Positions 2,829 to 60,219 of a stretch of DNA of 64,000 nucleotides are shown one piece after another. Each line of letters starts with the position of its first letter. Within the stretch, counting starts at the first letter, position 1. Made by a program: the position numbers and the translations under genes. A model generated the notes under the pieces. The model did no database searches, was not told the origin of the DNA, and saw only the letters and a program-made list of their open reading frames with translations. Origin of the DNA: a virus; IMG/VR virus record IMGVR_UViG_3300020473_000017; one strand, 5' to 3'.

Positions 2829-3290
2829 CTACATTGTGAATTTTTCAGGGGGTTTTGAATCAGTAGTGATTTTAAGAGGTGCTTGCTCAACTCTAATAGT
2901 TTGAACAGGACCAGCACTAACTTTAGCCATGATCGCTTCAATGTCTTTAGCAGTAACAGGTGGAGGTCCACCGTTAGGACTACCATTGCCATTCATCTTC
3001 ATAGTACCATCACCTTTCTTAGATGCGGTCTGAATTCCGAAGCTAGCTAAAACTCCAGTAAAAACTGAAGCTATAAATGTCGGATCTATTTTTTGTTGAG
3101 GTACTCCTGGAATCGACACGTAATTTAACGTCAAGATTCCGCCCGACCAGGCCAATACGGTAATACGGACAGCTGTACTTATGATAGCTGCTTGTTCCTC
3201 GGCATCAGGGAGTATTGCATCCTTGATCTTACCTAATGGACCTTTCGGTTTATCTTTCTTTTTTACTTCCTCCTTTACGGGGTCAGTCAT
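2829..3290 (-). CDS. Conserved cyanophage membrane protein (2 TM segments)
   Basis: Hydrophobic segments VRITVLAWSGGILTLNY and IDPTFIASVFTGVLASFGI. Confidence 0.75.
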   Translation of the reverse strand: MTDPVKEEVKKKDKPKGPLGKIKDAILPDAEEQAAIISTAVRITVLAWSGGILTLNYVSIPGVPQQKIDPTFIASVFTGVLASFGIQTASKKGDGTMKMNGNGSPNGGPPPVTAKDIEAIMAKVSAGPVQTIRVEQAPLKITTDSKPPEKFTM

Positions 3291-5209: not shown

Positions 5210-5448
5210 CGAATGTCTACATCAATTAATCTAGTTCTTCTTTTCCTAGGTGCATCTGTTCCCAACTTAAGTTCTGGTTCTATCTTAGGTGGTTTAGGTG
5301 TAGTTACTTGAACTACCTCACTTAAATTATTACCACCCATTATATCACCTCTTACATAAGTTTGGTTGGAACAACCACACACTTTGTAATCATGTTCATG
5401 CAGTGAAGTAATAGTTTCGTTACACTTATTGCAGCGTACTGTTATCAT
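5206..5448 (-). CDS. Zn-ribbon small protein
   Basis: CNKC...CGC motif. Confidence 0.7.
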   Translation of the reverse strand: MITVRCNKCNETITSLHEHDYKVCGCSNQTYVRGDIMGGNNLSEVVQVTTPKPPKIEPELKLGTDAPRKRRTRLIDVDIR

Positions 5449-5938
5449 CGGTCTTTTGAATATCTAAAAATAGAAACACCATATCGTTTTCTGAATGATT
5501 ATAACCAGAGTGAGGATGATCCATAACATCCCACACCTGTGCTTCTCCATCGTGCCAGTGAACAATTTCTCCAGTCTCTTCCCAGATCATATATTGTTCA
5601 GGACATACGCTCAATGGAATCTGTATCCTCCTATAAGGTTTATCATATACATCTGGATCTTTGTGTTTCGGTAAATCTGTATCGGGAGTGAAGACTGCTA
5701 CTGTTGCAAGCAGTATCTCTTCCTGTTGTAATATTTCTAATGCTCTAGGATCATCAACAACACTTTCTCTGACACCACCATGAGTATCTCTTCTTGCCTT
5801 GAGCCAACAGAAGTATATATCTTTATCATCTCCTGTATTACTATCCTTTGCATAACCAACAGAGGTTGGTGCCTTTCTCAAAGGAAATTCAGTACGAGAT
5901 GCCCAATCATATAGGTAATCTACGTCAGATTTCTTCAT
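5426..5938 (-). CDS. Aspartyl/asparaginyl beta-hydroxylase-like 2OG-Fe(II) protein
   Basis: LPKHKD, RIQIPL, HPHSGYN, FLFLD. Confidence 0.75.
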   Translation of the reverse strand: MKKSDVDYLYDWASRTEFPLRKAPTSVGYAKDSNTGDDKDIYFCWLKARRDTHGGVRESVVDDPRALEILQQEEILLATVAVFTPDTDLPKHKDPDVYDKPYRRIQIPLSVCPEQYMIWEETGEIVHWHDGEAQVWDVMDHPHSGYNHSENDMVFLFLDIQKTDDNSTLQ

Positions 5939-17133: not shown

Positions 17134-17838
17134 TTATATATAGTCCTCTTCATCTTCCCATTTCTCCATAACGACACCTTCCTTTTCAAGTTGTGACAAA
17201 GAATAGTCAAGTATAACTACAATTCTGTCGTGAGTACCGTTATGTTGTGCCCAATGTTTATCGTGATCATGGAAAGCAAATGGTTTTCCCACCTCCCATG
17301 TTCTCTTACGACCACGTACACTTAACCATGCACCTGGATCAGTAACTATAGGTACATGCAACCTCAATGAATCTATGTCACCACTATGAGGATTGATCTT
17401 TGTACCTGGAGATAACTTACTTATAGTACAACTCTTTAATATCTTAGAATCTATCTCAGGTTGCAATGCTAAATGAAATACAGGACAACACTTCTTCATA
17501 CTCTCAGTTAGTTTGGGTAGTACTTCCTGTACCTTCTCTACCGTAGTATTAAATAACTCAACGAATGAAACCATTTCGCTGAGTTCAAAGTCTTCTTCTG
17601 TTGCTGTATCACCTACAGCATTAAGTGGCATAGGGATGACTGTCCATGAGCCATCCCAAAGCTGCACCCTGCCAAGGTTCCTATCCTCAACCCACTTATC
17701 TAATACCCATTCCTTTAAGATGGGTTGGTTTGTTTCTACAAACTTTAGAATCTCTGGGATGATCCATTTATGATGTACTTTTACATTCTGAAATGAGGAT
17801 AGATGTGATATCATATCCTCTTGCCAAATCTTTCTCAT
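17134..17838 (-). CDS. Aspartyl/asparaginyl beta-hydroxylase
   Basis: SKLSPGTKINPHSG, LRLHVPI, KHWAQHNG, RIVVILD. Confidence 0.85.
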   Translation of the reverse strand: MRKIWQEDMISHLSSFQNVKVHHKWIIPEILKFVETNQPILKEWVLDKWVEDRNLGRVQLWDGSWTVIPMPLNAVGDTATEEDFELSEMVSFVELFNTTVEKVQEVLPKLTESMKKCCPVFHLALQPEIDSKILKSCTISKLSPGTKINPHSGDIDSLRLHVPIVTDPGAWLSVRGRKRTWEVGKPFAFHDHDKHWAQHNGTHDRIVVILDYSLSQLEKEGVVMEKWEDEEDYI

Positions 17839-17841
17839 ATA

Positions 17842-18024
17842 TTATGGGTCAGTATCCCTTGGGGGACACTCCTTTAATCCGTGTACTGGACAGTCTACAC
17901 CTTTTTTCGTATGATTGCAAGCTTCCTTTAATTTCTCTTTAGGAACCTTCTTCATCTTCTCTTCAGATGGCTTGCGCCCATCAGGATCATCCAGTTGAGG
18001 CATGATCTCAACGGGGCCTTTTAC
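17842..18024 (-). CDS. -1 frame extension of the 18021-18998 gene, or a separate small ORF from ATG 18003; Cys/His tail
   Basis: Open -1 frame VKGPVEIMPQLDDPDG...CNHTKKGVDCPVHGLKECP* starts exactly at A-AAA-AAG. Confidence 0.65.
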   Translation of the reverse strand, partial: VKGPVEIMPQLDDPDGRKPSEEKMKKVPKEKLKEACNHTKKGVDCPVHGLKECPPRDTDP

Positions 18025-18998
18025 TTTTTTTCAGAGATGCTCCTGAAAGTTGAGAAAGATCTCTTCTCTCCTACTGTTTCATTGCGCTTGTTTTGTTCCT
18101 TTCCAATCTTCGTATCAGAACCCTTCTTAGTATAGGATTTCTTACCTTCTGATTTAATTGCAGGTTCTACATATACAGTTCCGTGTGGTCCTGCAGGTAG
18201 TTCTGGATTTACTTCATCAGGATTTTGTGATCTTGGATCAGCTGCGTGCTCATGCACAACTTCTTTAACTACTTCAAATGATTCAGCAGGTACTGCTTTC
18301 TCTATACCATGCTCAAACATAATATCATAGTGAGATACATTCCCATCCTCGTCTAGTGTATGCATCTCACTAAGACAGTTACCAGATCCCCACTCTGGGT
18401 GCTCCACTTTGGTAACGCATGAATGTTTTACTTTCTTTACATCAGGCTTCCCTTCTTCACCTTTCGGTTCAGCAAGTTTCATACCTGGTGCATCACCACC
18501 ACCTACACCATCAGCTCCTTTGCCTTTGATGTCTGTATTACCTATCTTAGCGGAGTAATCAAATCTCCATGTCTCTTCGACACTTTTAAACTTTGTGTTT
18601 AGACTTGTTTCTGCAGCTAACTGTGCTAAAGTCTTTTCCTCGTGGTGATCCATCTTATCTTTTTTGGGGTCTGTTGGGATTGTTTGCTTAACTTCAACTG
18701 TGCCAGCAGGTTTCTGTACCTTCTGTCCAGGAGTAAGCGACATAACATACTCTCGATATGCATCAGTTCCAGTCTCGAAAACTTCTTGTATGTCAGTGAT
18801 CCAAGTGCGGAAGGTTGTATCTTCAGCAGTTAGACATAGTACATAGTTAGGTCCACGACGTAAGATCTTTCCTACCTGTCCGTTCTCAGTTAAAACCCAC
18901 TCACCTTTTTTATATACTTCGTTCTTATAGAACTTGTCACGAGTGATTTTTGCTTCCGCAACCTGAGTCTTTTTAGCAAAGTCAGAGAAAGATTTCAT
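18021..18998 (-). CDS. Conserved cyanophage Glu/Lys-rich protein (probable head-associated)
   Basis: MKSFSDF start, SH3-like GKILRRGPNY segment, E.GTDAYR motif; TATAAATA upstream. Confidence 0.75.
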   Translation of the reverse strand: MKSFSDFAKKTQVAEAKITRDKFYKNEVYKKGEWVLTENGQVGKILRRGPNYVLCLTAEDTTFRTWITDIQEVFETGTDAYREYVMSLTPGQKVQKPAGTVEVKQTIPTDPKKDKMDHHEEKTLAQLAAETSLNTKFKSVEETWRFDYSAKIGNTDIKGKGADGVGGGDAPGMKLAEPKGEEGKPDVKKVKHSCVTKVEHPEWGSGNCLSEMHTLDEDGNVSHYDIMFEHGIEKAVPAESFEVVKEVVHEHAADPRSQNPDEVNPELPAGPHGTVYVEPAIKSEGKKSYTKKGSDTKIGKEQNKRNETVGEKRSFSTFRSISEKK

Positions 18999-19022
18999 TA
19001 ATATATGTGTACATATCAAGTT

Positions 19023-59685: not shown

Positions 59686-60219
59686 TTATTTTTTCTTGTT
59701 GTGTTGAGCCCACGCAAATGCGTATGCTTTGTCTTTTCCGACTTTCTTTTTTAAAGATTTAACTTGTTTCTCTCTTCCAGGAGGTGCATCCTCTCCGAAG
59801 ATACCACCAACTGCAGGTGGTAAAGATTGTTTACTACTATCAGCTGACCAATGACCATCTGAAATATTTGGTTTAAGAGGTTTCTTACCTCCACCTTTCT
59901 TTTTCCAGTTAGATGACTTTTTTGTTTTTGCTGCTAAACCTGCAGAACCCCCATCAGTCTTTGCTGCTAAACCTCCTCCACCACCAGAGATTGATGCTAA
60001 AGATTCATTAGTCATGAATACAGTTCCATCAGTAGGATCTGATTCATGATATTTAATAACCCTACTACCAGGATAGACACTCTGTGCTATCTTCTGTGCT
60101 TGAGGTCTTTGAAGTTTTTGTAACTTACTTCTAAACACAGTGATATCATATTCTCTACCTCGCCATACGAGGGTGAGAACGTAGTACCTCCCGTACATTG
60201 TAGGGATGCGTGATGCCAT
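59686..60219 (-). CDS. Hypothetical protein, probably virion-associated
   Basis: Folded N-domain (YPGSRV), Gly/Lys linker, C-terminal EDAPPGREK..K.LKKK....AYAFAW. Confidence 0.7.
   Translation of the reverse strand: MASRIPTMYGRYYVLTLVWRGREYDITVFRSKLQKLQRPQAQKIAQSVYPGSRVIKYHESDPTDGTVFMTNESLASISGGGGGLAAKTDGGSAGLAAKTKKSSNWKKKGGGKKPLKPNISDGHWSADSSKQSLPPAVGGIFGEDAPPGREKQVKSLKKKVGKDKAYAFAWAQHNKKK

Follow-up and report, generated by a model that had tools for sequence, protein, structure and literature searches.

In E. coli, the dnaX gene carries the slippery heptamer A-AAA-AAG together with a Shine-Dalgarno (SD)-like element around 10 nucleotides (nt) upstream and a stem-loop around 6 nt downstream of it, a stop codon of the 0 frame or of the shifted frame lies near the site, and two fixed isoforms, gamma and tau, are produced from one gene. 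The same combination of elements is found on the minus strand of the IMG/VR virus record IMGVR_UViG_3300020473_000017, a stretch of 64,000 nt from a T4-like Prochlorococcus myovirus, which is referred to as the window in the following. Here, the heptamer forms the end of a late gene encoding a protein of 325 amino acids (aa), the SD-like element is located 9 nt upstream of it (7 to 12 nt in relatives), and two isoforms per gene are likewise predicted. It is likely that a dnaX-like programmed -1 ribosomal frameshift at the 3' end of this gene adds a tail of 60 residues. However, the locus also differs from dnaX, whose shifted product is the shorter one because the shifted frame ends almost at once, whereas the shift in the window would add a 60-residue module, and the gene families are unrelated. 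Unlike in dnaX, the 3' structure varies by clade and encloses a possible start codon.

Extension of phage proteins by recoding at the 3' end of a gene has been described for gene 10A/10B of T7, ORF5 of the Lactobacillus phage A2, cps and tsh of the Listeria phage PSA and gp17.1* of SPP1. In these phages, the shift takes place at or near the last codons of a late gene and leads to a minority isoform with an added C-terminal domain, which is the arrangement proposed here. In contrast to the window, these genes encode proven virion proteins and use other slippery sequences, and some of them depend on a +1 shift; the protein of the window, for which a virion role is unsupported, belongs to a cyanophage-specific modular family. 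Further similar systems are orfA-orfB of the IS3 family and the G/GT genes of tailed phages, in which a -1 slip on an X XXY YYZ heptamer fuses overlapping frames that are annotated as separate open reading frames (ORFs); the IS3 family members IS911 and IS150 use A-AAA-AAG, the heptamer of the window. These systems, however, possess a large downstream domain and a long overlap, whereas the overlap in the window consists of the heptamer only, and the -1 frame opens exactly there. The mechanism is textbook knowledge, and the finding is a new instance rather than a new principle.

The slippery site and its conservation among relatives

The minus strand reads ...TTC AGG AGC ATC TCT GAA AAA AAG TAA AAGGCCCCGTTGAGATC ATG CCT... 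at the junction (Table 1), and reading in the -1 frame from G18024 gives 60 residues up to the stop codon TAA at 17844-17842. A -1 frameshift adding a Cys/His tail had been proposed at this place in a preliminary description of the DNA, and its coordinates, the register of the heptamer, the -1 frame of 60 codons and the ATG at 18003 were all correct on re-reading. Most ribosomes would read GAA AAA AAG and stop at TAA, thereby producing the 325-aa protein, and some would slip one base back with the lysine tRNAs on A-AAA-AAG, either in tandem or by a slip in the P-site while the stop codon sits in the A-site. The slipped ribosomes would continue with GUA AAA GGC CCC... and add 60 residues (...SISEKK-VKGPVEIMPQLDDPDG...CCHC), which leads to an isoform of 385 aa. 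Likely stimulators are the AGGAG element upstream of the heptamer and the hairpin that starts downstream of it, and the invariant ATG may also yield the tail as a free protein of 53 aa. It is very likely that the trans-frame product is made; statements on ribosomal slippage and how efficient it is, on what the flanking elements do and on whether the tail binds metal are inferences from sequence comparison.

Table 1. Position of the slippery site, its flanking elements and the adjacent genes within the window.
Feature	Position	Strand	Remarks
Slippery heptamer A-AAA-AAG	18024..18030	minus	X XXY YYZ register of the 0-frame ORF
0-frame stop TAA	18021..18023	minus	abuts the heptamer
-1 extension	17842..18024	minus	60 codons and a stop codon, VKGPVEIMPQLDDPDG...CNHTKKGVDCPVHGLKEC...; would give a trans-frame product of 385 aa
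Spacer from AAG to ATG, 20 nt	18004..18023	minus	(V)KGPVEI in the -1 frame; no -1 start codon upstream
In-frame ATG	18001..18003	minus	invariant; may start a free tail protein of 53 aa; inside the conserved helix
CCHC module C-x8-C-P-x-H-G-x3-C	17866..17919	minus	invariant in the tail
SD-like AGGAG	18040..18044	minus	9 nt upstream of the heptamer; may be a 5' stimulator like that of dnaX
Two-part hairpin	17974..18017	minus	begins 6 nt downstream of the heptamer; folding energy -21.2 kcal/mol (z -3.2)
0-frame gene	18021..18998	minus	325 aa, gp185-like, T4-GC 534, PHROG 22379, function unassigned
Downstream 2-oxoglutarate (2OG) oxygenase, Asp/Asn beta-hydroxylase-like (TlmH)	17134..17838	minus	ATG 3 nt past the tail stop

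The phage isolates P-HM2, P-HM1 and MED4-213, to which this region of the window shows 74-76% DNA identity, have GAA AAA AAG followed by TAG or CAA TAG, and their -1 frame runs open into the small ORF. A search based on the tail retrieved 14 loci from IMG/VR and 10 from metagenomes, some of which are just 57-67% identical in the tail, and every locus covering the junction has GAAAAAAAG (25 distinct sequences, in which the three synonymous sites are unchanged). Since this set had been found through the tail, the search was repeated with only the conserved N-terminal part of the upstream protein, which removes the ascertainment through the tail. Of the 80 loci obtained in this way, 24 are cut by a contig end and 56 contain a complete gene; 55 of the 56 complete homologs have GAA AAA AAG and a stop codon, together with a -1 tail of 52-62 codons. 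In the one exception (L104, 2501-3295), the upstream gene stops after 264 codons, which may have arisen by mutation or in the assembly. The heptamer and the open -1 frame, for which the preliminary description had looked to homologs, are thus conserved throughout the complete relatives except L104.

In the pooled set of 64-65 distinct junctions, the nine bases of the site (GAAAAAAAG) never vary. The 45 bases 5' of the site have a mean identity of 56%, the preceding three codons occur in 34 versions, and two-fold synonymous sites nearby mix freely, for instance AAA and AAG at a conserved Lys codon (11:11). TAA or TAG follows immediately past AAG in 61 of 64 junctions; in the remaining three, there is one sense codon and then a stop codon, where this part was read. 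The -1 frame is shut by TGA just 5' of the heptamer in most loci checked, and there is no start codon before the ATG. The length of the open -1 frame is always 52-62 codons, or 212-228 codons in one metagenomic clade. This clade (L021 2001-2669, L022 2001-2654, L023 558-1196 and L025 1621-2307) has the same heptamer, and its long extension adds Cys-rich and basic modules and ends with ...DPDSRINKSLRAWNC, which illustrates that a recoded extension can be large and consist of multiple modules.

Within the window, four in-frame copies of A_AAA_AAG are seen compared to 8.5 expected (19,215 codons). The other three copies are likewise located on the minus strand, at 59923 and 59752 (both in the ORF 59686-60219) and at 3264 (ORF 2829-3290), and their -1 frames comprise 2, 25 and 2 codons, respectively. 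As the heptamer is found less often than expected and the other three copies have short -1 frames, the site described here goes beyond chance. The Lys-Lys pairs in the minus-strand genes of the window (n=154) are encoded by AAG-AAA (64), AAG-AAG (54), AAA-AAA (23) and AAA-AAG (13); the slippery order is the rarest one, which fits selection against accidental slippage.

The spacer and its counterpart in gp186

The spacer between the AAG of the heptamer and the ATG has a length of either 20 or 23 nt in all 64 junctions (35 distinct spacers). Variation within the spacer follows a period of three in the -1 frame (entropies of 0.44, 0.28 and 0.96 for the first, second and third codon position), a pattern that matches the one found 3' of the ATG. 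The encoded peptide has the form V-x-G-P-[VI]-E-[IV]-M-P, variants of which include VTSTIEV and VASSSVEI; the residues G3 and P4, which precede the Met, are the same in all 16 aligned tails and absent from other linker clades. The ratio of non-synonymous to synonymous variation (pN/pS) of the spacer is lowest in the -1 frame, at 0.51 compared to 0.81 (0 frame) and 1.87 (+1 frame); for the motif MPxLDDPDG just past the ATG, it is 0.135. By these measures, the spacer behaves as coding sequence, and the constraint is genuine, yet moderate. The peptides predicted to start upstream of the Met of the tail are GPVEIMPQLDDPDGR in the phage of the window and GPVVVMPTLDDPDGMK in P-HM2.

The CCHC motif of the tail recurs in the Synechococcus phages S-CAM8 and S-RIM12. 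In both phages, the gene following the gp185-like gene encodes MLSFKALAEKK-TKVKINPKQ...C-x-H-[TS]-KKGLDCP-x-HG-x3-C in a single frame, and EKK (ERK in S-RIM12) is specified by the non-slippery codons GAA AAG AAA or GAA AGG AAA. The N-terminal motif of this protein, gp186, which reads MLSF(K/R)AL(A/S)EKKTK(V/I)KINPKQ, is present in 215 phage records. The end of the 0 frame in the window, F-R-S-I-S-E-K-K, matches this motif, which in the clade of the window forms the C-terminus of the upstream gene. The junction peptide TFRSISEKK/VKGPVEIMPQ aligns over the shift point with SFKALAEKKTK--VKINPK, and its alignments with four gp186 N-termini reach scores of 38-43 (shuffle p<=5e-4). Because the junction peptide aligns with the single-frame gp186, both sides of the heptamer are one polypeptide elsewhere.

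The gp185/gp186 pair of S-CAM8, S-RIM12, S-RIM8 and ACG-2014a shares several properties with the locus of the window: it is found at the same place after the DUF6267 and cytidylyltransferase genes, the upstream protein possesses the HxC...WG.GN...H.L.E.G...HYD domain, and gp186 has MLSF(K/R)AL(A/S)EKK followed by a Cys-rich segment, which is the same CCHC module in S-CAM8 and S-RIM12. Unlike in the window, gp185 and gp186 are separate genes with a stop-start overlap, the EKK codons are non-slippery, and gp186 has a long Lys/Glu-rich tail. This comparison suggests that the boundary between gp185 and gp186 has moved by around ten codons, presumably in the downstream direction, after which the rest of gp186 would be reachable only by a -1 shift. 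The locus would thereby exemplify the origin of a frameshift site through displacement of a gene boundary. The Cys-rich segments of gp186 proteins are interchangeable (CCHC, CxC...CxxC or CxxCxGxG-like) and are followed by a long Lys/Glu-rich, probably disordered region; examples are L028 2414-3211 (S-CAM8), L029 2414-3337 (S-RIM12), L030 1801-2907 and L031 1801-2739.

Taken together, the -1 frameshift of the preliminary description is supported by the conservation of the heptamer and the -1 frame and by a spacer that is coding-like and homologous to an in-frame gp186 peptide.

Flanking signals and rival explanations

A GGAG or GAGG sequence is located 7-12 nt upstream of the heptamer in all 64 junctions, and the background frequency of these motifs is 3.9% of the window positions. 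An upstream element of this kind is known from dnaX, but not all -1 frameshift sites possess one. The codons that contain the SD-like element differ by clade and include AGG-AGC, TGG-AGA, an inserted AAG-GAG and AAA-GAG-G. On the 3' side, the hairpin of the window consists of a lower stem, GCCC(C)/GGGC, and an upper stem, GAUCAU/AUGAUC plus CC/GG, and a stretch of 81 nt, which includes a second, downstream hairpin, reaches -25.9 kcal/mol. Relatives from the clade of the window have the same fold (z -2.5 to -4.6), P-HM1 and one divergent clade form related hairpins (z -1.9 and -2.2), and one clade has a local hairpin, CCUCGA-CUA-UCGAGG, 3 nt past AAG. For the structure named here, 76% of the cells are paired in 36 distinct sequences compared to 26-51% in slid controls, and the covariation score is 0.142 versus <=0.093 in the controls; both pairing and covariation figures are inflated, as the structure was derived from the same 36 sequences. 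Covarying pairs are 27-47, with GC in 13, AU in 11, GU in 10 and other combinations in 2 sequences, and 17-56, which occurs as UA, GU, CG, AU and UG. The motifs GTTGAG-atcatgc-CTCAAC, ATCAT/ATGAT and GCCC/GGGC, on which the preliminary description had based an H-type pseudoknot with a possible outer stem, are all present in the sequence. The GCCC/GGGC outer stem and the ATCAT/ATGAT pairing covary and are supported by the relatives, and stem 2 of the pseudoknot is paired in 86% of the cells; stem 1 (GTTGAG/CTCAAC), however, is paired in 47.5% and specific to a few sequences, so that the pseudoknot as such is not supported.

Several observations weigh against a frameshift as the source of the tail. 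The 3' structure is not uniform, and other clades fold differently or weakly (z -0.7 to -1.9, with values of -0.7 to -1.3 for the weak folds); in these clades, the shared core helix begins 16 nt from the heptamer, which is far for a stimulator, as such structures are expected at 5-9 nt. This helix encloses the ATG and may therefore serve the control of initiation as well as the stimulation of slippage. The spacer pN/pS of 0.51 reflects moderate constraint, and RNA pairing with downstream codons could imprint part of the periodicity. Neither the ATG nor the Pro codon after it varies, and an ORF of 44-71 aa starting at this ATG is reported by gene callers, for which reason the tail could also be made alone. 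A free tail is also biologically plausible, because the CCHC protein is a separate gene product in S-CAM8-type phages, where its gene is stop-start coupled. If two ordinary genes were present, the tail would be made only as a free 53-aa protein by re-initiation at ATG 18003 after termination at the TAA 18 nt upstream; the hairpin would hide the ATG until a terminating ribosome opens it, and conservation of the A-run would have a different cause, such as a function as an A-rich leader. This arrangement would account for the invariant ATG-CC, the helix around it, the GAG that precedes the ATG by 6-8 nt in 33 of 35 spacers and the separate ORF in databases. However, it leaves unexplained that the G of AAG and the three synonymous sites of GAA AAA AAG are fixed in 64 junctions, given that this codon pair is avoided elsewhere, that the spacer preserves the frame, has its pN/pS minimum in the -1 frame and encodes a near-invariant Gly-Pro before the ATG, and that the peptide on either side of the heptamer matches one continuous gp186 N-terminus. 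Two ordinary genes as the sole explanation are thus improbable, but a re-initiated free tail is plausible and may coexist with frameshifting.

The same 385-aa protein would be obtained if the RNA polymerase stuttered on the A7 run, since transcripts with A8 place the tail in frame, and the conservation of the run fits either mechanism. Thermus dnaX, some IS elements and Shigella mxiE rely on transcriptional slippage at A/T runs; known bacterial runs of this type, however, comprise around nine or more residues, and seven is short. In addition, the run is never 8 or 9 residues long in the 64 junctions and always ends in G, which results in the best-known ribosomal slippery form, and the SD-like element at a dnaX-like spacing, the adjoining stop codon and the 3' hairpin at a distance of 6 nt are features of ribosomal slippage, which makes stuttering of the polymerase quite improbable. 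An artefact, i.e. a homopolymer sequencing error or a recently broken gene, might be suspected from some long ENA contigs (those of P0020 and P0053), which have shorter A-runs and an in-frame read-through. However, the reading frame of these contigs is broken at further places in the same stretch of 60 codons, and their upstream gene is fragmented, as is typical of homopolymer errors. Moreover, A7 is identical in the three isolates, which were sequenced separately, and in dozens of assemblies from IMG/VR and metagenomes. Because isolates and assemblies agree, a sequencing error in the 7-A run, which the preliminary description had considered, is excluded, and an artefact of either kind is extremely improbable.

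An in-frame fused form was found neither by a hidden Markov model search of 1.84 billion representatives nor by a search for longer tail proteins, error-ridden contigs aside. The contigs behind P0020, P0052 and P0053 (84 and 172 kb) have shorter A-runs and several nearby frame breaks, most likely due to homopolymer errors, and illustrate how faulty assembly can turn a site of this kind into a false fusion; P0020 and P0053 were accordingly rejected as true fusions. Two further candidates were discarded: P0003 is a chimeric contig of 900 nt, in which the first 28 residues of the tail are joined to a fragment of an arginyl-tRNA-synthetase, and P0017, an invasin-repeat protein of 1589 aa, matches only by a short GPVNIMPQID repeat, which was taken as a chance similarity.

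The ribosomal frameshift could be part of a wider arrangement, in which three products, the 325-aa protein, the 385-aa fusion and a free CCHC peptide of 53 aa, are made in fixed proportions and the helix enclosing the ATG acts as a switch. The helix would stimulate slippage of incoming ribosomes and, once termination has taken place, make the ATG accessible for re-initiation, and the ribosomes in the tail frame alone would bring translation to the Asp/Asn-hydroxylase gene. This is a tentative proposal that we consider rather unlikely; if true, a recoding site would have been born from a shift of the gp185/gp186 boundary by ten codons downstream, and it would be the first known case of programmed frameshifting both for T4-like cyanophages and for the ribosomes of Prochlorococcus.

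T4-like cyanophages rank with the ocean's most abundant viruses, and their genomes are annotated as one frame per protein. GenBank records list the two frames as separate genes, and full-text literature searches revealed no description of a cyanophage frameshift at this site; one study mentions cyanophage dioxygenase clusters only (PMC2938197). T4-GC 534 and T4-GC 535, which are listed apart or of which one is omitted, are very probably one recoded gene. An isoform would therefore be missed when the genes of this phage group are catalogued, its core genes counted or its proteomes searched. Furthermore, this naturally occurring site, which has been sampled in depth, lends itself to studying dnaX-like signals on cyanobacterial ribosomes, where SD use is considered weak.

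The upstream protein, the tail module and the genomic setting

The ORF of the upstream gene extends from 18021 to 19019 on the minus strand, the likely start being the ATG at 18998, and the protein opens with MKSFSDF. The 325-aa protein has no match in Pfam, and PHROG 22379 carries no functional label; the P-HM2 homolog (T4-GC 534) is labelled 'possible cytitidyltransferase' in its record. The closest annotated structural gene is located three genes downstream, and the designation as a head-associated protein in the preliminary description is hence unsupported. Its assignment as a late gene, in contrast, agrees with published RNA-seq data of P-HM2, in which PHM2_164 and PHM2_165 are both classed 'Late' (PMC5082946, supplementary file 3). 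An alignment of the 325-aa protein (window 18024-18998) reveals conservation of residues 20-90 and of a His/Cys-rich part, residues 192-251, in which many His residues are invariant. The region past residue 251 is variable, and relatives gain or lose the short modules DNDGDxDxSD, KKGLWxNIHAKRKRGE and ASTCWxGYKAKGTKxKGGKxVPNCV; invariance returns solely at the last residues, F..R...EKK. The AlphaFold2 model of the protein has a predicted local distance difference test score (pLDDT) of 40 and is too poor for a fold search, and a search of the ESM Atlas yielded unnamed viral clusters only.

The small ORF of the tail corresponds to PHROG 32143 and T4-GC 535 and is a separate gene in the P-HM2 and P-HM1 records and unannotated in MED4-213. 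The residues C36, N37, C45, P46, H48, G49 and C53 of the tail are invariant, with the spacing C-x8-C-P-x-H-G-x3(4)-C. The fuller module consists of a DxDxDG-like (DFLDxDKDG-like) motif, a basic stretch and CNHTxKGxxCPVHGxKEC. It is also present in frame within other Lys/Ala/Glu-rich proteins of uncultured viruses (P0030 with 361 aa, P0032 with 311 aa, P0034 and P0036), where it often precedes ...QQAAIAIAKKK. The module appears to be a small mobile unit to which no function has been assigned. The tail has no match in Pfam, and its AlphaFold2 model (pLDDT 64) is nearly without secondary structure and too poor for a fold search. In the preliminary description, the tail had been described as zinc-binding; the C-C-H-C residues are indeed invariant, but zinc binding itself is unsupported beyond these residues. 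Metal binding by the tail, or a role of the tail as a substrate of the hydroxylase, is a conjecture.

In the window, the genes are arranged in the order DUF6267 gene, cytidylyltransferase-like gene, 325-aa gene and Asp/Asn beta-hydroxylase-like oxygenase gene (TlmH), and neither the window nor a complete related genome of a P-HM1-type phage contains tRNA genes. A host in which a single tRNA-Lys with the anticodon UUU decodes both lysine codons would favor slippage on AAG. The tail stop codon (17844-17842) and the ATG of the hydroxylase-like gene at 17838 lie 3 nt apart on the minus strand. As only ribosomes in the tail frame arrive near this start, there may be translational coupling between the tail frame and the hydroxylase gene. 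In P-HM2, one additional gene lies between the tail and the hydroxylase-like gene. A second 2OG oxygenase, which is Asp/Arg hydroxylase-like and has a length of 170 aa, is encoded at 5426-5938 on the minus strand of the window.

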